From: an uncultured Nitrososphaeraceae archaeon
GTDB lineage: Archaea > Thermoproteota > Nitrososphaeria > Nitrososphaerales > Nitrososphaeraceae
Length of the DNA: 64,000 bases
NCBI GenBank assembly: GCA_963825865.1
Contig: CAWGVG010000021.1
Span: 128,001-192,000 of the forward strand
Direction of reading: 5' to 3'
The translations under genes were made by a program, and so were the position numbers. Position 1 is the first letter of the stretch; each line of letters opens with the position of its first letter. The notes beneath the pieces were generated by a model, which was not told where the DNA came from, made no database searches, and worked only from the letters and a program-made list of their open reading frames with translations. Below are positions 2,727 through 48,916 of the stretch, piece after piece.

Positions 2727-2943
2727 TTGTCTAATTGTTATTTATTGAAGCAGAAATAAAATAAAGAAGAGTAGGTTGAAGAATAATTTTAGGAAGACTA
2801 AAGGTCTTGATGCAACTAAAGCAATCAAACAAAGACTAGAACCAGAGGTTGTAGTCCTTATCCCAAATGTAGGCTTATAGTTTACTTCTTCAAATCGAAT
2901 ATCTTTGTGAACAATATGTCGTATCCGATATATCTCTGCTTTA

Positions 2944-3364
2944 GAGCCTATCCCAAAATTATCCTCCAGTAGACAATAAAACAGCAAGCTAAAGAGACGA
3001 GTGCAAGATAGTTCTCTGATTTCTTTTCATATCTTACTAATAGTTTTCTGAACCTGTTATGCCATGAATTAGTTCTTTCTACAACCCACCTCCTTGCTGA
3101 ATAATATCTTAGCTTTATCAATTCTTCACCTCTGTGACGAATATGCGGCAAGTATCTTCTTTTGGTAGATTCTCTTTCTATTTCTGGATAATCATATCCT
3201 TTGTCCAGACATAGGTTCTGTTTCTTTAACGGTCTTTCAACTATCACATTATCCAGCGTATCTGTTTCAGCCTTCATGTCATGTGTATTTGCAGATGCAA
3301 TAATAACAGAATACTGGAATACCACGCTGGTCTGTTAATACATGGCGCTTAGTTCCTATCTTAC
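2944..3364 (-). mobile_element. Truncated copy of the IS5-family element at 19611-20484 (orfB part plus one TIR)
   Basis: Near-identical to 19611-20030; TIR GAGCCTATCCCAAAA at 2944; LDKGYD and RWVVERTNSW motifs. Confidence 0.9.
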
Positions 3365-3997: not shown

Positions 3998-5438
3998 ATG
4001 ACACTAAAAGAAATGACCAACAACAGCAGTAATAGTAGTAACAGTAACAGGCAGCAACAACAACAACAACGACGGCAGCAACATTAGGCAGCTTTAGCAG
4101 TAGTAGTAGTAATATTAGCAAAATTATAGCTTCATCTTCATCTTCATCATCTTTCTCTTCATTATCAGAAGAAAGCTATTACCGCAATTTTAAAAATTCC
4201 TGCAAAGCAGTAGCTACCTTTGAGAGTTATAACAACAAACTCAACAAATATATGAAATATAAAGGATATACAGAGTATTCTCAGTTAGTAGATCCAAACA
4301 AGGATGTCAGGATTATCGAATCTGACATTATAGATTTTATAGTTTATTTAAAAGAAAAACATTACCGATATGAGTCAAGATGTGCTTACCTAAACGCCAT
4401 ATGTCATTTTTATAATGTTAATGATGTTGTAGTTATTCGTAAAAAGAAGATCTCGAGATTTTTGGGCAGTGAAGATGATGATAATAATGACGTTGCTGCT
4501 ACGGCAACGGGAGGAGTAGGAGTAGAAGATCCGCCGCAACAGGAAGATAAACCATATACTACTGAGCAGATCTCCAAACTGCTAGAGGTATCAGACGAAC
4601 GTACCAAAGTAATGGTTCTACTAATGGCATCTGCTGGTTTAAGATTGGGTGCTTTACCAGGTTTAAAAGTAGGTCATTTAATCAAAATTCCTGAATACTC
4701 TAATTATCAAATAACAGCTTATGCCAATTCAAAAAAGTCAAGATATCAAACCTTTTGCACTAGTGAATGTGCAGTAGCAATTGATAACTATCTGGATTTT
4801 CGTAAAAGATGCGGAGAACATGTAACAGCTAAATCGCCATTGCTACGACGACAGTTCAATAGAGATGACGAGTTGCAAACTGCTAACATGGTATTGCCTA
4901 TAGGAATATCAGCAGTAAAGCGGTGTCTAAATAAAGTATTATATGAATCTGGTCTGCGGACCCATTTAATAGAAAAAAATGAAAACAAACTTAATCAACG
5001 CAGAGATATGTCGCAATGGCTCACGGCTTTCGCAAGTTTTTTGATACAACTTGTACGCTAAATGGAATGAATCCTATCTATGTCGAGATTTGTATGGGTC
5101 ATTCACTCAAAGGGGTAAAGGATTCATACTTTATACCACGTGCGGATAAGAATGGCATTTATCGTGATATCTTGGAAGGTAATGACAGAAACCTAGGCTA
5201 CTTATCAATTATGGATGCTCTTACAATAAACCAAGAGCATCGTCTAAAGACTGAGAATATAAAACTAAAAACCGAGACTTCAAAAGTTAACCAGTTACAA
5301 GGCCAGTTAGATAACATGAAAAACGAGATAAACGCATTAACTGGAAGTTTGTATAATATGTTATCCAAGACATCGAAAAAAGAGATTGAAGAGGAAGTTT
5401 CTCAACATATTGAACTTGATGAATCTAAATGGCGTTGA
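3998..5438 (+). CDS. Tyrosine recombinase/integrase, split by frameshifts (4252-5061 plus 5016-5438)
   Basis: SAGLRLGAL (Arg I), AHGFRKFF (HxxR), MGHS and DSYF (Tyr), C-terminal coiled coil; frame is open upstream of 4252 (YYRNFKNSCK). Confidence 0.85.
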
Positions 5439-6772: not shown

Positions 6773-8158
6773 ATGTCTTCGTCACAATCAACTCCATCAA
6801 CAACTACTACAGCAACAGTAGAGGAGAAAGTCAAGAAAACTCATTACTCTGTATCTGAGGCCATAGAAGCAGGATCAGGTAAGAACGTCATTGTAACAGG
6901 AATGATTGCGAGTTATTCCACTCCATACAAAACGATATCTAGATCTGAATGGAAATGTGATAATCCTCTATGCAGTCTAGTTGGAAGTGAATCATACACT
7001 CCGCCATTATTAGTACCGCTAAATAGACTTGATAATACGAGAGGTTTTAGTATAAAGTGTTTCAAATGTGGAAGCACTGCATTTGACGCTTACCATATCT
7101 ATAACAACACCAGACCAATACAATTAGAAGATTCGGACAAGGCAAGTGATGAAGCATATAATAGCACCGACAGACTCGAAGTAGTGCTTTATGACGATGC
7201 GGCTTCTCGAGTAATTGCAGGTGAGATAGTTGATATTGTAGGAGATATAATCACTCAGCGCAAGTCTGACAGCGGTGCTAGTGCTAAGAACAATAGCAAG
7301 AAACTTGTTAATGTACTCCATAGCTCAGATATAAGATATCGTAACAAGGATAAAGTTGTCATAACGCAGAAAGATATTGATACATTCTACAGACATAAGA
7401 GGATCTGCGATGCAGTATATGCCAAAGAACTTGAAGCATCCAAGACCAATAAGCAAATTGTTCCTATGCGATATATCGATAGACTAGTTGCAATGTTTGC
7501 ACCAAACGTATTAGGATATGAGAACGTAAAACTTGGGTTGCTTAGATCCTTAGTCGGTGGTAGAAAGGATCACGGAGACGACAACGGAAGACGTGGAAGG
7601 ATAAACACCGTGTTAGTTGGCGATAAAGGCACAGCAAAATCCATGCTTGGTAAAGAATCTACAAAATTAATTCCAAACTCTAGGTATATCAGTGCACAGA
7701 ATACGAGCGGTAAAAGTTTAGTCGGTATTGTAGACAAAGAGAACGATGGTTACTATCTCAGGTTAGGACCTACAGTATTGGCTAGGAATGCAGTATGTGC
7801 AATCAATGAGTTTGGATTAATGCCGTTAGAAGACCAAGGACACTTAAACGATATTGCAGAGGAAGGTAAAACAACGCTAATCAAATATGCTATAACATTT
7901 GAACTCGACGCGCAGACAACTATCATAGCAATTGCCAACCAATTCAATACAGAATGGAACGATCCAAAGAGCATATCTAAAGACGAGATTCCTATGCTCA
8001 GGACTCTAATAGACAGGAGTGACCAGGTATACGCATTTAGAGACGAACGTACAGAGCAGGAACTTGAACAATATGCCAAACAAAAGACCAATCTAAGAAA
8101 ACGTAGACCGCATAATTACAGGGGGTTGTGGTTGTTTATTTCCTATTTTCAATGTTGA
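6773..8158 (+). CDS. MCM-family helicase (element-type), C-terminally truncated
   Basis: Zn finger (C-x4-C...CxxC), FAPNVLGYENVKLGLL, Walker A GDKGTAKS, Walker B AVCAINEF, IIAIAN, R-finger LIDRSD. Confidence 0.88.
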   Translation: MSSSQSTPSTTTTATVEEKVKKTHYSVSEAIEAGSGKNVIVTGMIASYSTPYKTISRSEWKCDNPLCSLVGSESYTPPLLVPLNRLDNTRGFSIKCFKCGSTAFDAYHIYNNTRPIQLEDSDKASDEAYNSTDRLEVVLYDDAASRVIAGEIVDIVGDIITQRKSDSGASAKNNSKKLVNVLHSSDIRYRNKDKVVITQKDIDTFYRHKRICDAVYAKELEASKTNKQIVPMRYIDRLVAMFAPNVLGYENVKLGLLRSLVGGRKDHGDDNGRRGRINTVLVGDKGTAKSMLGKESTKLIPNSRYISAQNTSGKSLVGIVDKENDGYYLRLGPTVLARNAVCAINEFGLMPLEDQGHLNDIAEEGKTTLIKYAITFELDAQTTIIAIANQFNTEWNDPKSISKDEIPMLRTLIDRSDQVYAFRDERTEQELEQYAKQKTNLRKRRPHNYRGLWLFISYFQC

Positions 8159-8601: not shown

Positions 8602-8778
8602 TAGATGGAGAGGAGGTAGACAATAATAATGAAAAACTAATACAGAATCTTGCTTTGTCAAATTCTGAAAATGACAAAGCCGAATTCTCTAACAATCCTC
8701 TATATTATGATATGAGGTTCTTTGTCAGTCAGTCAATCATTTATATTGGCAAACGTTGCTTGATTGCTTGATAGTTAA

Positions 8779-9198
8779 ATGTCAACAAATCAAAGTACAA
8801 GTTCAACAAATACAGGCAAACAAGTCCTAAGTGAAGAGACAAAGAAAAAGATATCAGAGATGAGATTAAGACTGGACCAGAAAGCAAGTAATAGGAACAC
8901 CAAGTTTATCAAGTTCAAAGATGGCGATCACCGATTACTGCAAATCATTCCAGATAAAACAACTGAAGAATTAGTTACATATGAAAGCCAGCCAGACAAG
9001 CCAGTTAACAGATTCAAGTTCTATGTGCATGATCTTGGTAGTTCGGAATCAGCTGGTGAGTTATTGGAGTGGACCTGCTCTGAAACAGTTGCTGCAGATA
9101 TTCTAAAGTGGATTGAAAAAGGTTACTGTGCAATGCACATAACTAGAAAAGGTTCGGACCTAAAGACCAAGTATGATATTGACCCACTGATAGACTAG
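8779..9198 (+). CDS. Putative phage-type single-stranded DNA-binding protein (copy 1)
   Basis: KFIKFKDG...ITRKGSDLKTKYDIDP resembles gp32-like SSB motifs; three copies in the window; function inferred. Confidence 0.5.
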   Translation: MSTNQSTSSTNTGKQVLSEETKKKISEMRLRLDQKASNRNTKFIKFKDGDHRLLQIIPDKTTEELVTYESQPDKPVNRFKFYVHDLGSSESAGELLEWTCSETVAADILKWIEKGYCAMHITRKGSDLKTKYDIDPLID

Positions 9199-13280: not shown

Positions 13281-13571
13281 ATGTGTTTCAAAGATGGCGA
13301 TCACAAGTTACTGCAATTTATTCCAGAGAAGACAACCGAAGAACAGGTTACATACGAAAGCCAGCCAGACAAACCAGTTAACAGATACAAGTTCTATGTG
13401 CATGATCTAGGTAGTTCGGATTCTGCTGGTGAAATACTCGAGTGGACCACATCTGAAACAGTAGCCGCAGATATTCTAAAGTGGATAGAAAAAGGTTACT
13501 GTGCGATGCATATAACTAGAAAAGGTTCAGACTTGAAGACACGGTATGATATTGATCCGTTGATAGATTAG
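13281..13571 (+). CDS. Putative SSB-like protein (copy 2, N-terminally truncated)
   Basis: Highly similar to 8779-9198 from FKDGDH to DPLID. Confidence 0.6.
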   Translation: MCFKDGDHKLLQFIPEKTTEEQVTYESQPDKPVNRYKFYVHDLGSSDSAGEILEWTTSETVAADILKWIEKGYCAMHITRKGSDLKTRYDIDPLID

Positions 13572-19430: not shown

Positions 19431-19610
19431 AACGACAATTCAAGAACTATCTAAAATATCAAAAAAATAAAAAAATCTAGTTAGGCTTTTTAGCCCATTT
19501 ATGGTCTGTATTAACCTATGTCAATGTGCATTGTACGTTCCCTGTAAAGGTTCCCGCTGTATTTGGATCTCTATAAGTGATTGTTACCCTGTCTCCACAA
19601 TCCCCACTTA

Positions 19611-20484
19611 GAGCCTATCCCAAAATTATCCTCCTGTAGACAATAAAACAGCAAGCTAAAGAGACGAGCGCAAGATAGTTCTCTGATTTCTTTTCATATC
19701 TTACTAATAGTTTTCTGAACCTGTTATGCCATGAATTAGTTCTTTCTACAACCCACCTCCTTGCTGAATAATATCTTGGCTTTATCAATTCTTCACCTCT
19801 GTGACGAATATGCGGCATGTATCTTCTTTTGGTAGATTCTCTTTCTATTTCTGGATAATCATATCCTTTGTCCAGACATAGGTTCTGTTTCTTTAAAGGT
19901 CTTTCAACTATCACATTATCCAGTGTATCTGTTGCAGCCTTCATGTCATGTGTATTTGCAGATGTAATAATAACAGATACTGGAATACCACGCTGGTCTG
20001 TTAATACATGGCGCTTAGTTCCTATCTTACCTCTGTCAGTAGGATTAGGACCTGTCATTTCCCCCCTAAAGGTGCCTTCACAGATACACTATCAAGCGAT
20101 TGCCACGTCCATCTAATACCTTTGATATCATCATAAACTTCCAGTAGTCTTACCCACAATTTTTGAAATACTTCAGATACTGTCCACTCTTGGAATCGCC
20201 TATGGCATGTTGAACCGGAACCATACTCTTTTGGCAGCATCTTCCATTGGCAGCCAGTTCTTAAGATGTAAACAATGCCATTGAGTACTTTTCTAAAAGG
20301 AACAACAGGACGTCCTATAGTTTTATTTGGTTTTTCAGACGGAAGTAATAGTTTGATCTCTTCCCACAAATCATCTGGAACAATTCTTATAGTCTGAAGA
20401 TGCTTCTTTCTTTTATAATCATAAACCACATGAATAAGGAGAATACCTTCAAGCTATATGCCTATCTATTTTTGGGATAAGCTC
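19611..20484 (-). mobile_element. IS5-family (IS427/IS1031-like) element, complete; two-ORF transposase 20055-20429 plus 19615-20058
   Basis: TIR GAGCC/TTATCCCAAAA at both ends, TTA duplication (19608-19610, 20485-20487); RTGCQWKMLP and LDKGYD motifs. Confidence 0.93.
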
Positions 20485-40685: not shown

Positions 40686-41886
40686 TTACTTATTTGTAAC
40701 ATCAGCATCAGACCTTATTGGTTGGTTTTGTCCTTTTAATTCCTGTACTTCTACCCTCAACTTCATTACTTGATCTGACAATGTTGCTATGGCATCTGTA
40801 TTCATAGAATCACGTTGTCTTAGTAACTGCATCTCTTTTTCTTTCTCAGATAGCTTAGCCTCAATGCTTTTACCTGTAGCTTCCAGCAGGGTTGAATAGT
40901 CTAAGAATGTAAGATACTTATCATTTAGTAGCATAGATTTCCCTTCTTTCAGATTCTTTTATTGTGTAATAAGGACTCTTATTATGACCCAAGAACCATT
41001 CAGAATAATCCTGCCCGACTTGATTACCAATTACACTCTTTACAAACCTTCTCAAAGAATGTAATGTTATTTTTCTTTTTTTCATTCCTTCTTTTCTTTC
41101 ATCAAGTTTGGCAGCTTGGAGGACTTTGTTGAACTCAGCATTTACCTTCACATATAGAGTCTGTGGATGTGATTTTACTCTAAATACATTGAATACTAGG
41201 TCGTCAGGATTTGGCAACTGTGTAGGATTACAATCTCTTTTACGACATCTCCAATCCAACCACTGCGTTAGATACTTCTTCATCTGAGATATAGATATTT
41301 CTTGAAACTCTAGTCTTGGAATACTCTTTACGAACATGAATTCTGGTAGTATTAACAGAAAATCTATATCTTTAAAACGGATGGCTAATGCTTCGACTGC
41401 GCGCATTCCACCACTGGCCAGAACTAGGAGATATGCTTTAAGTCTGCGGTTATTTCAAGACAACAATATCTTTCTAACATCTTCAACATCTATTGATTCT
41501 TCATCTTCCTTTCCAATTTTTGGAACTTTGACTATTCGCTTAAATTTCGATGGTATGATGTCAATGTCGTAATATGCTAAATACGATCTCATACCAATTA
41601 AAATGGCCCTTATTGTCATAGGTGCAAGCTTTTCATCTTTTGTTGTTTCGTATGTAATAAAACTATCAATTAATTCAGACATCAATTTGTTTATCCAGTA
41701 TTAGTTTTAGTATACTCTCTACAGTATAACCACCATTAAATTTGCCATCCAAGAATCTTTGAAAATGAACTAATGCAGTTTCGTAGTTCTTTTTGTCTTT
41801 AGACTATTTCTCCCCACGCTATCTAAAAATGTTCTAACTTTTGGAAGGTTGTTAATTACTGTACGTGTGGAGATAGTTACCGACAT
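40686..41886 (-). pseudogene. Tyrosine recombinase/integrase with multiple frameshifts
   Basis: ASGGMRAVEA, TLHSLRRF, WFLGH, SPYY, C-terminal coiled coil. Confidence 0.85.
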
Positions 41887-42847: not shown

Positions 42848-43300
42848 ATGGCCAAAGCTTATGATATTCCTTCTGATGATCTCATTGCAGTGTTATCTGA
42901 ACAGCTAAAAAAAGACAAGAAAATTGAACCTCCAAGCTGGGCAGCATTTGTCAAGACCGGTGCTCATGTTGAAAAAATTCCCCAAAACAGGGACTGGTGG
43001 TATACAAGATGCGCTTCTCTTTTGAGAAAAGTTTACATCCACGGTCCTATCGGTATTTCGGATCTAAAAAGTAAATATGGTGGCAGAAAACAAATTGGAT
43101 ACAACCTATCTCACCATAAGGACGCAGGTGGAGCAATTATTCGTAAGGCATTACACCAACTGGAGGCAGCTGGTTATATCGTCAAAAAAAGCAAAGGTAG
43201 ATTGATCTCAGATGAGGGAATGAAAAAAATCGATAGATTAGCCACCGAATCTTATAAAGAGATTATCAAGTCTTCGCCAGAGTTACAACGATACGCCTAG
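42848..43300 (+). CDS. rps19e: 30S ribosomal protein S19e
   Basis: WAAFVKTG, DWWYTRCASLLRKVY, IIRKALHQLE. Confidence 0.97.
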   Translation: MAKAYDIPSDDLIAVLSEQLKKDKKIEPPSWAAFVKTGAHVEKIPQNRDWWYTRCASLLRKVYIHGPIGISDLKSKYGGRKQIGYNLSHHKDAGGAIIRKALHQLEAAGYIVKKSKGRLISDEGMKKIDRLATESYKEIIKSSPELQRYA

Positions 43301-43329
43301 GTTTTTCCTGTGAGGAGAGATGAAGAGGC

Positions 43330-43617
43330 ATGTCGATTCCTCAACCACAAGAACCAAGTGATGAAGACAAGAAGCGGGAAGCTGAAGCAGTGGCTATGCG
43401 GCAACGTGCTCTAATGGTTCTTTTAGAGCCTTCCGCACGTCAAAGGTTGATGAATGTTAGAATGGTCAAACCAGAACTGGCTACAGCAGTTGAAAATTAT
43501 TTAATAAATGCAGCTTCAACAGGAAAACTGAATAAATCACTGACGGATGAAGAATTGAAACAAATCTTACTTAGCATACAGCAACCAAAAAAAGATTTCA
43601 AAATAAACAGACGCTAA
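43330..43617 (+). CDS. PDCD5-like DNA-binding protein
   Basis: LEPSARQRLMNVRMVKPELA..VENYLI; usual neighbour of rps19e. Confidence 0.92.
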   Translation: MSIPQPQEPSDEDKKREAEAVAMRQRALMVLLEPSARQRLMNVRMVKPELATAVENYLINAASTGKLNKSLTDEELKQILLSIQQPKKDFKINRR

Positions 43618-43681
43618 CTAAAATTAATGTAGTTATGGACTTGCTTTAATAGCAGTTTTCTGATATTGATACCAACAACCG

Positions 43682-44268
43682 ATGTCACAGAAAATCAAAA
43701 TCAAAATCAATCAAATTTCTGGGTATAATTCAAACGAATATTATAGGAATTTCATCAATTCATGTAAATCTGAAGCCACAAGCGTGATTATCGCAAGGGC
43801 TTAGGCTATTTCATGGACTATATGAGCATTGAACCTGAAAAAGAAGATTATGCCAAGTTGATTGAAGGTAGAGATGTCAGGATTATTCAATCCGACATAA
43901 TCAATTGGATCACACATATGAAAGACACAGCAGGATTATCTCCTGCTTCAATCAAGCTTTACACTGCTGGCGTATATCATTTTTACAAAATGAATGATAT
44001 AGTGCTAAACAAAGATAAAGTCAATGCCTTCAAGCCTGAATTTCACAACGTTGTTGAAGACCAGCCATATACAAGGCAACAGATCAAGACAATGTTGGAT
44101 AAAGCAGAACCTAGAAATCGTGCTATAATTCTGTTACTAAGTTCATCAGGTATGCGTGTTGGTGCATTACCGAATTTAAAGGTAGGTGACTTGACGTCTA
44201 TAGACAAATACAACATATATCAGATACAAGTCTACAAACGTTCAAAATCCAAGTATATCACATATTAG
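43682..44268 (+). pseudogene. Tyrosine recombinase, N-terminal half (frameshift near 43780, truncated before HxxR/Tyr)
   Basis: Homologous to 3998-5438: YYRNFINSCK, DVRIIQSDII, DQPYTRQQI, SSGMRVGAL. Confidence 0.85.
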
Positions 44269-44269
44269 T

Positions 44270-44685
44270 ATGGAGCAACAGATTCGAGAAATTCTTAGTT
44301 CAATTCAACGGTCCATCTGCATCCTTCCGTATTAACGAACCCATTGTAAGACACAACGATCCAAGTTCGCTCAAAGACATTCTTGAGCAATTTATGCTAG
44401 GCATTAGTGTTCCAAATCTCAAATCCGTTGAAGATATCAGATGCGACAAGTATGTTATGAATGGCAATGATGAAACATGTAGCACTGGTTTTTACTAGGA
44501 CTGTGAGTTATCTTGATACAAATAAAATCGTCACATTGATGGTAATTTCAGAGCATGAGGGAGTTATGTATTATTTTACATATGAAGCACTTCCAGACAA
44601 TTTTGATGCTATACTGCCAACCGTAGAAAAAATGATTAACTCTTTTAAAATATTGGCAAATACGACTCAGACTCTGTCCTCATAA
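44270..44685 (+). pseudogene. PsbP-like domain fragment
   Basis: YYFTYEALPDNFDAILPTVEKMINSFKIL. Confidence 0.55.
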
Positions 44686-45217
44686 CGTCGTCGCTATCCA
44701 ACTCAAGAAGACTTTGAATACCGTTTGGAGAAATAGAGATGGATTATAAAATATGTAATTGGCACTGATTGAGGATTAATTCTCCAAGTTAAAGACAGAT
44801 GATCAGAAATACGACAGAATAAAAGGCATGATAACAGGATAGAAACTAAAACAGACCCACCTTTTAAAATCTGTGATCCCTGTGTTTATGGTGAATATAA
44901 GAGGCTTGAAAGACTATATTAGAAGACCTTATAGACCAGAAAAAGGTATGGTAAACCCTACCGATGGCAATATCTATGAATACGGGTAGGAAGAGTTGAC
45001 GAACAAATAGGCAAACGCTTAGGAATATCGTATGAAACTTAAATTATCCATCATGTTTGTTCATTTGAAAAACGTACGGCATTACAACCGTTCAATTTTG
45101 GAAAGTTTTACAGACCTATGATTAAGATGCTTTTCAAGTATAGGTTATAACTTACGTTATGTTTTGTTAGCTGAAGTAACGCCTCGCCATTACAGGCCTT
45201 TTGAGTTCAAATGTGCT

Positions 45218-45292
45218 ATTTGACGGATTTGACGGCGTATTTGACGCGCTATTTGACCGCTCATTGACACATTTGACGCGCTATTTGACGGA
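45218..45292. repeat. Seven tandem ATTTGAC-core repeats (iteron-like)
   Basis: Cores at 45218, 45227, 45239, 45251, 45263 (ATTGAC), 45271, 45283. Confidence 0.85.
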
Positions 45293-45406
45293 CATATGAT
45301 AAATATATAAACTGATGTCACTATTTCTTAAGTAAGTAAATAAGAATATGCCTGAGCGATTCCAGAAACTATAAAATCACGAGTTATAATACAATGGCTC
45401 CAAGGC

Positions 45407-45505
45407 CTTATTAGTAAGGTATGAAAAAATCAGAGAACTATCTTGCACTGGTTTGCTTAGCTTGTTGTATTATTGTCTATAGGAGGATAATTTTGGGATA
45501 GGCTC
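45407..45505 (+). mobile_element. 3'-end remnant of the IS5 element (cf. 19611-20484)
   Basis: ENYLALVCLACCIIVYRRIILG* followed by TIR TTTTGGGATAGGCTC. Confidence 0.85.
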
Positions 45506-45749
45506 TTCCCTGTCTTTTCTTATATGTTGAAAAATTCTATGGAGCTTAATCCAATATGACCCTACTATATTTTCGTTCTGTGATATGATATGTAGACATA
45601 TGGATTATATTGTTCAGACTGGATGCTGGTAATAGCTCTAATACTTGCCATAGTAACACTTGCAGGTTTTATTTCTCCAGCAATCCTTTTAGGACTAATT
45701 TTTCTACTTGGGCTAGAGAGCAATAAGTACGCCTGCATTTTCTCCATTT

Positions 45750-46619
45750 TTGCTTGGAACAGTTCCTCGTAGCGAGATTAGAAGTGCTATAACATTAAAT
45801 GGTGTAGCATTAAACATTGGTCGAGGAATAGGACCTGCAATTGGTGGTATTATAGTATAGCGATATAGGACCTGCGAGCAGTCTTTCTAATCAACTCCTT
45901 GTCATTTACTGGAATTGTAATAGTTCTTCTGCGGTACTAAGAACATGAACAGCACAGGGCAGCAAACAGACAGAAGAAATTAGTCGCCTTCCTGCAGAAA
46001 GAATGTTTGGTGCTATTCGGGGCTGGCTTGAGATATGTCAGAAATAGCCCTTCAATAAATAGTGTATTTGTTAGATATACTGCTTTTGCAGTATCATCAA
46101 ATGCACTTCCAGCATTACTTCCATCATTATCGCGTTTTGCATTAAGATTAGACTCTACTGGCTATGGAATTTTGTTTGGTCTTTTTGGTGTGGGGGCAAT
46201 CATAGGTGGAATTAAAATGTAACCAAGAGCAATTAAGAAAACATCTCCTGATAATTTGGTAGTTATTGCAAAAGCTTATTTTCTCAGTTTCATACATCAT
46301 ACTTGGATTGATACATAATCTAGTTGTATTATATGCTCAAATGGTACATAGCTGGAATTGCACAGCTTATGGCATTTTCTACGTTGGTACTTATGTTCTA
46401 TATCGTGGTTTGCCAAACTGGGTGATGTCCCGAGTTGCTTCTGTATATCAGTCGAGTTTTGCAAGTACCATAGTGGGTGGAACTTACTTTGGGTGTAAAA
46501 CTGCTGACAAATTAGGAATTAGGATTACGTTACTAATAACAGGTATTGCAATAGTATCAGCAGGATTAATCACAAAGTTAAAGTTCCCTCTCCTGCATGT
46601 AGAGGGAGAAGTCTCTTAA
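45750..46619 (+). pseudogene. MFS transporter remnant
   Basis: ALNIGRGIGPAIGG, AGLRYVRN, GYGILFGLFGVGAIIG; multiple stops. Confidence 0.7.
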
Positions 46620-46967
46620 GACATTTAGTAATACTGTCTAAGACTTTATCTGTCTTCTATGGGTGCTATTTAAAGAACCAAAACGTTAGGCTGACTGAGT
46701 TAGGCAGAAAAAATTGTGATAAAGGAATATCTATTCCACCATCAACTCATCAGGCACGTTAACCTATGATAAGACTGACTAGTGAATAATCGGACCAACT
46801 ACCATGGATGGATGGATGATAATGCGGGCAATTGCAGATTTGGACATCTTGACCAAATTAAACAGATAAACAAACATGGATTTAATTTTTGAATTACAAA
46901 CAGATCGTTACTGATGATCAGAAACACTATGTCCGAAAAATAGATAAATGGAATTCTTCCTTGTTAA

Positions 46968-47416
46968 CTAATTTATCAAAGGATCAATGCTATACCTGGT
47001 TTTGATGTCCGATCCTTTTCTAGTTACATGCAATCACGAAGTAACCTTTTTCTATCCACTTTAGCATTTCTGCCGCTTACAGTTTCAGATGAAGTCCATT
47101 CCATCTCCTCTTCAGTCGCAGACTTAGAACTTCTAAGCTCATGCACACAAAACTTGTATCTGTTAACTGGTTTGTCTGGTTGGCTTTCATATGTAACTAT
47201 CTCTTCGGTGGTTTTTTTGGGACAAATTGCAGTAACTTATGATCTCCATCTTTGAACTTGATGAATTTCGTGTTCCTTGAAGATGCTTTCTGGTCTCCAA
47301 TTGTAACCTCATATCTGCTGCCTTACGTTTGGTTTCCTCACTTAGGACTTGTTTGCCTGTATTCTTTGTACTTGTTTTTTATTTACATTTACACTTGCAG
47401 TTTGATTTGCTGACAT
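46968..47416 (-). pseudogene. SSB-like gene copy 3, frameshifted (not in ORF track)
   Basis: Reverse strand reads GKQVLSEET..., VTYESQPDKPVNRYKF, RKGSDIKTRYSIDPLIN*; upstream sequence matches that of 8779. Confidence 0.8.
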
Positions 47417-47865
47417 TTTACTATCAAGCAAGCATACAACGTTTACCAATATGGCTTTTTTCATCTTACATTGTTATCTAGATCATCATACTCTGTTGAT
47501 TCTTTACATACTCTATATGGCTTGAATTCTTTGCATTTACATTCAAACAACCTTGCGATAATCACGCTTGTGGCTTCAGATTTACATGAATTGATGAAAT
47601 TCCTATAATATTCGTTTGAATTATACCCAGAAATTTGATTGATTTTGATTTTGATTTTCTGTGACATCGGTTGTTGGTATCAGTATCAGAAAACTGCTAT
47701 TAAAGTCCATAACTACATTAACTAAAATAGTTGTTTTATATATAATTTTTTGCACATATATATATATATATATGCTATCTCAGCTAACTTGACAAGGCAT
47801 ATCTCGTTAAAATTAGCGATTTGGGTTTAGTTAACTATATTAAGTCTTGACATCGTTTCAATTTT

Positions 47866-48916
47866 ATGAAGGCAGCCGTATTTCGGGAATATAATAAAGA
47901 TCCTACAAAAGTTGTGAAGATTGAAGATATTGACATGCCAAAATTGAAACCTAACGAAGTTATGATGAAGGTAGAATCAGCATCATACAATTATAATGAC
48001 CTTTGGGCTATTTGGGGAGACCCGCTTAAAGTTCCAATACCACATATTTCTGGCAGCGATGTGGCAGGTACCTATAGTAGAGGCTGGCGAAGATGTTACA
48101 AAATTCAAGGTCGGAGACAGGGTTGTCTCACATTCTAACTTAAGCTGCAGAGTTTGTAATATGTGTACATCTGGGAGAGAGTATGACTGCAATGATAGAT
48201 TAGTCTGGGGATTCCAGACGGGTCCACTGTGGGGCGGTTTTGTTCAATATACACATCTACCAGAAGTAAACGTTGCCAAAATACCGGACAATATATCATT
48301 TGATGACGCAGCCGCAATCTCAATGGTTGGAATGACTGCATGGCACATGTTAGTAGGCAGAGCCAAGATAAAGCCTGGTCAAACAGTCCTGATCATGGGT
48401 GGGACCAGTGGAGTAGGCATGGCAGGAATTCAGATTGCAAAATTATACAACTGCACCGTCATTGCTACTGCAGGTAATAAAGAAAAAATGGACAAATGTT
48501 CAGAGATAGGCGCAGACTATGTAGTTAACCACAGAGAAGCAGATTGGCATAAGAAGGTAAGAGAGATTACAAAGAAACAGGGCGTAGATGTTATCTTTGA
48601 ACATATCGGCAAAGCAGCATTTGCACAAGAAGTTGCCCTTTTGAAGATGGCTGGAACTCTTGTAGCGACAGGTGCAACTACTGGTTACGATTCAACTATT
48701 GACTTGAGATATCTCTTCTTCAAAGGAACAAACTTGCTCGGCTCCACTCAGGGAACTAAAGCTGAACTAGAAGAGGTAATTTATTGGACGGGCAAGGGCA
48801 AGATAAAGCCCATTATTCATACAATTCTACCCTTTAGTGACATGGTAAAAGGCCATATAATGATGGCTAATGCTGAACAGATTGGAAAAATTCTAACTAC
48901 ACCACAGAAACTCTAA
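47866..48916 (+). CDS. Zinc-binding MDR-family dehydrogenase/reductase (frameshift near 48070)
   Basis: PHISGSDVAG, CRVCNMCTSGREYDC, GGTSGVG, GATTG. Confidence 0.9.

Follow-up and report, generated by a model that had tools for sequence, protein, structure and literature searches.

Long inverted arms around a dif-like core in a probable decayed integrase element downstream of the PDCD5 gene of a Nitrososphaeraceae archaeon

Introduction

The core of a simple tyrosine-recombinase site consists of two inverted binding sites around a short crossover spacer, and after integration via such a core an element has short inverted repeats at its ends and one direct copy of the spacer on either side. 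The loxP site of Cre and the FRT site of Flp are simple sites in which inverted binding elements surround an asymmetric spacer; in the yeast 2-micron plasmid FRT is located inside inverted repeats of 599 bp, and elements integrating at dif-like sites are known as IMEX. The dif site is built from two 11-nt inverted repeats and a 6-nt spacer, the ends of which are the cleavage points (PMC8371274). In Thaumarchaeota, cryptic integrated elements range from 2.6 to 98 kb and use attachment (att) sites of down to 8 bp, 14 of 68 in the 3′ ends of genes and 15 of 68 intergenic (Krupovic et al. 2019, PMC6563490). Here we describe an element of ∼4.1 kb in an uncultured Nitrososphaeraceae archaeon, inserted directly 3′ of the gene for PDCD5. 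It lies in the window, which is the whole stretch of 64,000 nt that was analysed (G000:C21:128001-192000, where G000 is the source genome of 4.98 Mb). The element is decayed, has a broken tyrosine-integrase gene inside and is bounded by long inverted arms that resemble transposon ends.

We propose, with a probability of roughly 0.68, that the locus represents a decayed cryptic integrated element of the thaumarchaeal type, in which a single inverted duplication lengthened the att core. The arms, the joined ends, the empty site and related elements are considered first, followed by the interior of the element and the contigs that cover its junctions.

Results

Inverted arms and direct repeats at the element ends

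The PDCD5-like dsDNA-binding protein gene (43330-43617, + strand; Pfam PF01984, E 6.6e-25) forms the host flank on the left, and its stop codon abuts the insertion. The left arm (43624-43798, + strand) and the right arm (47551-47721, - strand) align in a single alignment of 175 nt with 97.1% identity, one mismatch and one 4-nt gap, and can be divided into a block of 155 nt (43644-43798/47551-47705; 99%) and one of 19 nt (43624-43642/47703-47721; 100%). Each arm comprises 57 nt of upstream DNA and 39 integrase codons. The left one begins with the half-site TTAATGTAGTT (43624-43634), followed by a TATA-like TTTAATAG box and, from the ATG at 43682 to the arm end at 43798, by integrase codons 1-39, while the right one, an inverted copy of it, carries half-site, promoter and integrase codons 1-39 with the same frameshift. 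At 47550/47551 the right arm is joined to 98 nt of unique DNA upstream of a gene for a single-stranded DNA-binding protein (SSB).

The 8-mer ACTAAAAT abuts both arm ends directly, at 43617-43624 (attL) and at 47721-47728 (attR). The first A of the left copy is the final base of the PDCD5 stop codon TAA (43615-43617). An initial annotation of this DNA, made from the letters alone, had described inverted repeats of ∼170 bp with one 4-bp indel and one mismatch, a direct 8-mer at both ends with its left copy overlapping the PDCD5 stop, and arms that contain the upstream region and ∼39 codons of the integrase, and all of this was confirmed. The chance of an 8-mer match is 2.9e-5 at the composition of the source genome. 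Among 128 inverted-repeat pairs at most 60 kb apart genome-wide, the pair described here was the only one with a flanking direct repeat of at least 8 nt; the two runners-up had flanking repeats of 7 nt.

The joined ends resemble a dif-type core

Joined in a circle, the right and left ends read AACTACATTAA-CTAAAA-TTAATGTAGTT, that is 11 bp, 6 bp and 11 bp with perfect half-sites, and the inverted repeat continues inward until exactly 6 non-palindromic bases remain. Two inverted half-sites of ∼11 nt around an asymmetric spacer of 6-8 nt, the hallmark of a dif/lox-type core, are therefore present. Each copy of the 8-mer is read as the 6-nt crossover spacer CTAAAA (43618-43623 in the left copy) and one base on each side, on the left one base per half-site. 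The apparent 8-bp target-site duplication (TSD) thus fits a 6-bp crossover spacer with one target-matching base per side, and cleavage would probably occur at the spacer borders. The initial annotation had opposed the direct att repeats usual for tyrosine integrases to the long terminal inverted repeats (TIRs) with a TSD seen here. This contrast was not supported, because the joined ends form an 11-6-11 core of the dif type. Matches to the half-site with at most two mismatches were not enriched in the window (46 versus 49 expected), and no second core was found in the centre.

In agreement with the Xer/dif system (PMC8371274), the locus combines two 11-nt inverted half-sites and a 6-nt spacer with an Xer-like recombinase, and the spacer flanks the element. 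Unlike in that system, the recombinase is encoded by the element and scores 56 bits against a cut-off of 220 bits, the target is not a chromosomal dif site, and the half-sites are part of a perfect palindrome extended to 175 bp. The design of the site is also that of loxP and FRT, and long inverted repeats around a recombinase site are shared with the 2-micron plasmid. However, those systems invert or excise within a replicon, whereas here the chromosome is the place of integration, and the long repeats surround a single core only in the inferred circular form.

The empty site and its polymorphism

The gene order Rpr2-S19e-PDCD5-ADH-CitE is kept among relatives, ADH being a zinc-type alcohol dehydrogenase gene (47866-48916, + strand; Pfam ADH_zinc_N and ADH_N) that forms the host flank on the right. 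Of 19 loci of relatives, which belong to other genera and have at most 80% nucleotide identity, 14 have ADH directly after PDCD5; in the other five, no ADH was present within the fetched 1.5-kb flank. The insertion thus interrupts a conserved gene order. After removal of 4.1 kb and one 8-mer, the PDCD5-ADH spacer of the source genome measures ∼145 nt, similar to that of the relatives. At the insertion site, ...TAGCTAAAAAT... and ...TAACTAAT... are found in the two closest of them, with ...CGTTAGCTAAAAATTATTG... and ...CGTTAACTAATTACC... as wider readings and ...CTAAAAAT... and ...ACTAAT... as shorter ones.

Sequencing run X2, which stems from a different study and another soil sample with the same species, contains one contig of 2565 nt (depth 7.8) that covers 42900-43628 and 47783-48540 with 50 letters in between. 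Since the 54 nt of 47729-47782 minus the 4 nt carried by the aligner to 43628 give 50, this contig fits an empty site with a single 8-mer. The same run also holds pieces of the interior at a depth of 2.5-4.6, and the insertion is therefore polymorphic within the species. The insertion of a tyrosine-recombinase element downstream of PDCD5, as annotated initially, is thus supported by the adjacency of PDCD5 and ADH in relatives and by the empty allele in X2. The site downstream of PDCD5, where inspection of related genomes had been suggested, fits a single ACTAAAAT in the relatives and in the X2 contig, so that direct att repeats flank the element at both ends and occur once in the empty site.

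Some further observations concern this neighbourhood. At 43619, in the left spacer copy, the assembly and the X2 empty-site contig have T, and A replaces it in the left-junction contig of run X5 and in one of two contigs of run X1. This could be a plain single-nucleotide polymorphism, or heteroduplex segregation if the spacers of attP and attB differ by one base. Downstream of the insertion, at a distance of 112 bp and within the promoter region of ADH, AACTATATTAA (47833-47843) matches the half-site at 10 of 11 positions. The surrounding GTTAACTATATTAAG is kept in most of the 14 relatives' spacers, with one different base each in L011 and L014, and the match may be a coincidence or an accessory binding site. 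A third integrase-like fragment (41401-41685, - strand; 25% identity to the integrase of the related element C27 over 102 aa, E 0.03) sits 2 kb upstream of the Rpr2-S19e-PDCD5 genes, and the PDCD5 neighbourhood may be a repeated landing zone.

Related elements share the same or a similar half-site, and C27 has no long arms

The closest full relative in the source genome is the C27 element (G000:C27:158638-171201; L076), which is 12.55 kb long, lies between an Lrp-like and an NcsA-like gene and encodes an integrase with 66% amino acid identity. It contains a 765-aa primase-polymerase-like protein (by reading), a helix-turn-helix (HTH) protein and the integrase, which is split in this assembly, and it has no long arms. 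Its boundaries are 14-bp direct repeats, CATTAAGAATGATT, at a distance of 12,550 bp; direct repeats of at least 14 bp were found in 2.5% of 1500 random controls. Removal of the element leaves an Lrp-NcsA spacer of 513 bp, compared to ∼420-530 bp in six relatives in which these genes are adjacent. TTAATGTAGTT, which occurs seven times in 4.98 Mb, is identical at the same place upstream of the C27 integrase, before a conserved TATA-like box, and the remaining upstream DNA has diverged. When the ends of C27 are joined, the half-sites match at 8 of 11 positions with 6-nt spacing, which is reached by 0.24% of 200,000 random positions (p ∼0.002). One inverted copy of the 11-mer at 109030, 62 kb from the integrase, was considered as the far end of C27 and rejected, as no flanking repeat is present and the 14-bp repeat at 158638 fits the synteny.

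Two further cases allow the junctions to be compared. A metagenome element represented by three records (L137-L139) reads TTAATGTATAT, and its homology to the empty site in the source genome (C62) stops at the border between spacer and half-site; a remnant in C29 reads TTAACATACTT. On the host side, each of the four junctions has TAA or TTAA in front of a 6-nt spacer of variable sequence (CTAAAA, TCATTC, TAACTG and TATTGA), and the pattern TAA/TTAA-N6-TTAAYR is found in four of four. Such junctions would be expected from an integrase whose dif-like core is centred on TTAA-N6-TTAA.

The integrase remnant and the interior of the element

The Xer-like tyrosine-integrase pseudogene (43682-44268, + strand) matches PF00589 with E 6.8e-5 and the NCBIfam model XerA_Arch with E 1e-11, both under the cut-off. 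XerA_Arch, XerD (E 3.8e-6) and XerC are its best NCBIfam models, all far below their cut-offs, and XerA, XerC and XerD are likewise the best matches, below cut-off, for the C27 integrase. Located at one end of the element, the gene shows 66% identity to the C27 integrase and 88% to that of L135, a metagenome relative. A 1-nt deletion lies near 43775-43785, inside the arm; the extra base is present in C29 and L137. Since this frameshift is found in both arms, either the integrase was broken before the duplication, or gene conversion spread the frameshift later. The frame ends at 44268, at about residue 198, with a stop at 44266-44268 that is also present in X1 contigs, and L135 has an intact continuation. 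The catalytic half, with the second Arg, His and the Tyr nucleophile, is absent, and tblastn did not find a C-terminal integrase half in any frame of 43.6-47.7 kb. This copy is therefore a dead member of its family. The frame at 44461-44685 (+ strand) resembles by eye the C-terminal end of a gene that is convergent to the intact integrase in L135 (L135:899-1282, - strand). Its strand with respect to the integrase is opposite to that in L135, which hints at an internal inversion; at the DNA level there is no match.

The other interior pieces are the start of an HTH gene, an insertion sequence (IS) end, MFS_3 fragments and the SSB gene, by which, together with the integrase, the interior is accounted for. 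The iteron-like array of ATTTGAC units at 45215-45290, noted in the initial annotation, is present as described and is part of a 330-nt module (45078-45410). Elsewhere this module is located upstream of a 446-aa HTH/coiled-coil gene, of which ∼20 codons remain here (45348-45410); it also occurs at three other loci (G000:C26:200583-200932, C2:48442-48678 and C22:88126-88254). The multi-copy 446-aa gene itself has weak matches to HTH_23 and HTH_Tnp_ISL3 only. The adjacent 100-bp fragment (45409-45506, - strand) is the 3′ end of a multi-copy IS encoding a transposase C-terminus, with 89% identity to 2943-3042 and 19610-19709 of the window, 88-92% over 25 aa in blastx, and a depth of 108-144 in four runs. 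Fragments of an MFS_3 transporter (PF05977, E 1.6e-14 and 2.2e-7) follow at 46007-46619 (+ strand), and some of their breaks may be assembly indels.

The gp32-like SSB gene (46971-47416, - strand) is present in pieces across frames and is a paralogue of window 8779-9198 and 13281-13571. The proposal that it is shared with island 1 of the window holds, with 74.5% identity over 487 nt between 46968-47452 and 8743-9198. No family model in Pfam, NCBIfam or PHROGs matched it, matches in the Atlas were confined to unnamed viral clusters and one cluster in which 17% of the members have Phi29_Phage_SSB, and Foldseek gave no match at E of at most 0.001. Its predicted fold (pLDDT 80.7, alignment of five sequences) is closest to the SSB core of RB69 gp32 (Z 9.0, root-mean-square deviation 2.7, 99 residues), followed by that of T4 gp32 (Z 7.4), and the next unrelated row has Z 6.6. 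Based on this fold, the label SSB-like appears reasonable.

Island 1 comprises a split integrase (4180-5438), a 461-aa MCM-like ATPase (6773-8158; by eye) and the gp32-like SSB gene at 8779-9198. A second, partial SSB copy is located at 13281-13571, and a 77-nt repeat follows each of these window copies (9444-9520/13773-13849; 82%), which suggests that the region is composed of tandem or nested elements. Island 1 is flanked by two IS copies (2941-3364 and 19608-20030) that are 98% identical, in direct orientation and 16.7 kb apart, with an IS4/IS5-like transposase by eye.

In archaeal linear replicons, TIRs of 100-600 bp are usual, and the arms are in this size range. Together with the gp32-like SSB gene, this would be in line with a remnant of an integrated linear replicon or virus, protein-primed or hairpin-ended, or with a casposon-like element. 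However, polymerase, Cas1 and transposase genes were not found inside the element, where the longest open frame is 151 aa and where Cas1 and PolB models were not applied to all six frames, and neither were a family B polymerase, terminal protein or capsid gene. Furthermore, the arms consist of the integrase promoter and 39 integrase codons, and the related C27 is an integrative element of the circular type with a primase-polymerase-like gene and att repeats. We regard this explanation as very improbable.

Search for other paired arms

The only other copy of the arm in the source genome is the C29 remnant, and no second arm pair is present there. In 237 genomes of the family arm DNA gave low-complexity matches only, and the arm pattern had no exact match in metagenome contigs. 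The integrase family itself occurs in 133 of 238 family genomes, with 11 matches in the source genome. These tallies of 237 and 238 genomes include the unpublished G250, G235, G184, G156, G116, G183, G114 and G115, which are absent from the fetched loci described below. The search for integrases in genome contigs returned two loci only, of which L021 (62% identity) keeps the TATA-like box and not the terminal motif. Apart from the tallies, the unpublished genomes contribute only a motif scan of L035 and L040, loci from two of them, which had no match.

To these data we added 40 integrase loci from other genomes with at most 19 kb of interior each, 14 of them shortened by contig ends, together with L021 and C27. 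The integrase 5′ end could be located in 37 of the 42, and apart from L121 none of the 36 other loci had an inverted copy of its own integrase 5′ end. In L121 a 47-nt match in both orientations was found to be an ordinary att repeat of 22 bp, with a palindrome inside, at the 3′ end of a tRNA. Three matches of the palindromic core pattern in viral contigs were unrelated GC-rich phage DNA or a fold-back contig end. A pair of inverted integrase 5′ regions in C14 (112623-113025/153929-154338), 41 kb apart, was rejected as two diverged remnants with no flanking repeat. At this locus (112623-113714 and 153594-154338) an internal part of a primase-polymerase-like gene directly continues integrase codons 1-115, and the fusion is inverted and 41 kb from a second, IS-truncated integrase with a 190-nt identical block in common. 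It is another deletion that begins within an integrase 5′ region.

The initial annotation had raised the possibility of an archaeal element family with paired arms. This was not supported: such pairs are lacking in the source genome, in the 237 family genomes and in the 36 integrase loci, and C27 has plain 14-bp direct repeats. The linear replicon, casposon and DDE transposon that it had named found no support in the gene content either, with no polymerase, Cas1 or transposase gene found inside. For a true transposon-like element, in which the 175-bp arms would be TIRs for a DDE-type or other transposase and the 8-bp repeat a TSD from staggered cuts, the form does fit, as TIRs and a short direct repeat that is single at the empty site are shared with DDE transposons and casposons, and an IS fragment lies inside. 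However, only 100 bp of an IS end and no transposase gene or Cas1 were found, and the single copy, with no further arms in the genomes searched and no copies moved in trans, cannot show a fixed TSD length at unrelated targets. Moreover, the terminal 11 nt are the integrase-side half-site conserved in relatives with ordinary att repeats, and the stretch at the centre that is not palindromic measures exactly 6 nt, the length found in dif-type cores, so that the repeat corresponds to a spacer and not to a free staggered cut. A transposon of this kind is thus quite improbable.

Independent contigs at the junctions

Contigs from four runs were compared with the assembly, with pieces in X1, X2 and X5 from three studies. 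Eight studies in total contain parts of the stretch. Record 26 of X5 (43546-43798) bridges the left outer junction and runs through the whole arm with no gaps, and therefore the frameshift in the arm is real. Records X5 27, X1 7, X2 15 and X5 30 join the interior to the inner ends of the arms. All four reach only 28-30 letters inward from the arm border, the point at which k-mer contigs break off, and thus stay one letter below the 31-letter rule for bridging; X1 record 7, X2 record 15 and X5 record 30 do so at the inner junction of the right arm. Of the junctions that were to be confirmed in spanning data, the left outer one is thus bridged by a contig, whereas the right outer one is not bridged among the contigs listed. 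No circular joint was seen in the four runs, which is no evidence of absence, since contigs are poor at showing joints, and the same holds for loose ends at the arm tips and other insertion sites, of which there were none among those listed.

Compared to the short-read contigs the assembly contains many single-base indels, for instance nine gaps in 45547-46229. One base at 48071/48073 is omitted in X2 and X1 contigs and explains the split ADH frame, which is a single frame in relatives and frameshifted in the source assembly only. Due to these indels, short broken frames in the window have to be read carefully. Many integrase genes genome-wide are split into two frames in this assembly, and short broken frames and apparent pseudogenes in this genome should be treated with caution.

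The indels, together with the right outer junction for which no bridging contig is listed, would be expected if the right arm was an artefact of an error-prone long-read assembly. Nevertheless, in contigs of three runs, each from a different study, the unique stretch upstream of the SSB gene continues into the innermost 28-30 nt of the arm, and the X5 contig spans the left outer junction together with the full arm with no gaps. In addition, one mismatch and one 4-nt indel distinguish the arms, which are therefore no simple fold-back copy. An artefact is hardly credible in view of these contigs.

Discussion

The element shares important features with the thaumarchaeal cryptic integrated elements, including an integrase as the sole conserved gene, a size in the described range, an att site as short as 8 bp, a protein-gene 3′ end or intergenic target, replication genes of the type found in mobile genetic elements, and an internal IS (PMC6563490). 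Differences are that the present copy, a mosaic after heavy deletion, has a dead integrase, and that the part of that survey consulted here makes no mention of inverted arms of 175 bp formed by the promoter and first 39 codons of an integrase (PMC6563490). We consider the element to be a decayed member of this known class, and its long arms an unusual single-copy variant.

We propose that the element entered by site-specific recombination via its Xer-like tyrosine integrase, with a dif-like core of two 11-bp inverted half-sites and a 6-bp spacer just upstream of the integrase promoter as the site. A crossover in CTAAAA directly after the PDCD5 stop would have left the spacer at both ends. From the comparison with relatives we infer that the 175-bp arms result from a single inverted duplication and are not equipment of the family. 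Read inward, the right side begins with the half-site and the promoter, continues with integrase codons 1-39 and unique DNA of 98 nt, and then reaches the SSB gene. Order and orientation of integrase and SSB gene on this side are the same as in island 1, with the intervening DNA deleted, and this side resembles a copy that was inverted and lost internal sequence. On its outer side the copy stops exactly where the element does, which places the centre of the duplication on the core. In a single event, the integrase-distal side would thus have been overwritten by an inverted copy of the integrase-proximal side.

Two routes could potentially lead to such a structure. In the circular form, a template switch at the quasi-palindromic core may have perfected and lengthened the palindrome, or a head-to-head dimer may have formed and then been reduced by deletion down to integrase codon 39. 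Both routes belong to general genetics; quasi-palindrome template switches and head-to-head plasmid dimers come from bacterial and eukaryotic genetics, where they involve tens of bases or whole plasmids. As in those cases, an imperfect inverted repeat would have been perfected and lengthened, with the original palindrome remaining at its centre. We know of no demonstration of either process for an archaeal att core, and a literature search turned up nothing specific on template switching at att sites. Since the integrase is dead in this copy, any later movement would have required a related integrase in trans; C27 carries the same half-site.

Several points weigh against this interpretation. 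The cleavage points, the binding of the half-sites and the 6-nt spacer are all read from the DNA sequence, and the half-site consensus is derived from four junctions of about three independent elements. The attB of this locus resembles the half-sites weakly (6/11 and 5/11, our own count). The count for the X2 empty site is based on letter numbers and not on the letters of the contig, and it assumes that the (AT)n tract at 47744-47782 has the same length there. None of the independent contig pieces listed bridges the right outer junction. In the circular form, a palindrome of ∼350 bp would be expected to be unstable, and the contigs showed no circular junction. That the end of the duplication coincides precisely with the element end is also expected of a true TIR element. 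Finally, a presence/absence polymorphism with a dead integrase needs help in trans or an old polymorphism.

This last point leads to a different view of the arms. The locus may represent a non-autonomous element with functional palindromic att ends, moved in trans by a related Xer-like integrase as a counterpart of miniature transposons, in which the long arms keep both ends as optimal binding sites. The insertion is polymorphic although its own integrase is without the catalytic half, the frameshift in both arms would allow the integrase to have been broken before the duplication, and C27 in the same genome has an identical 11-bp half-site. However, gene conversion between the arms could also have spread the frameshift, and homologous recombination can keep or spread a polymorphism with no new excision. 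In addition, the element is present as a single copy in its genome and in none of the 237 family genomes, no circular joint was seen in the four runs and no loose arm tips were among those listed, and the C27 integrase is split in this assembly, possibly by an assembly indel. We therefore regard a non-autonomous element as unlikely. Rather unlikely, too, is the more specific scenario of a working palindromic-att element, in which one template switch would have turned an imperfect core into a perfect palindrome with 175-bp arms, whose symmetric ends would allow a related Xer-like integrase to integrate and excise a gene-poor passenger in trans. If true, it would explain the polymorphism of a copy with a dead integrase in soil populations, and it would provide a tyrosine-recombinase analogue of miniature inverted-repeat elements and a route to transposon-like ends.

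The interpretation that we prefer, a decayed integrated element with a once-extended att core, implies that an integrase element with apparent transposon ends requires no new transposition chemistry, since a dif-like core leaves both the direct repeat and the inverted motif. The arms illustrate how a recombination core can extend into a long palindrome, and this is of evolutionary interest only if the arms are used. For one abundant integrase family of soil Nitrososphaeraceae, the comparison yields a testable core of 28 bp with TTAA-N6-TTAA at its centre. As the att sites of thaumarchaeal elements are too short for borders to be called easily, a defined core could help to delimit them.

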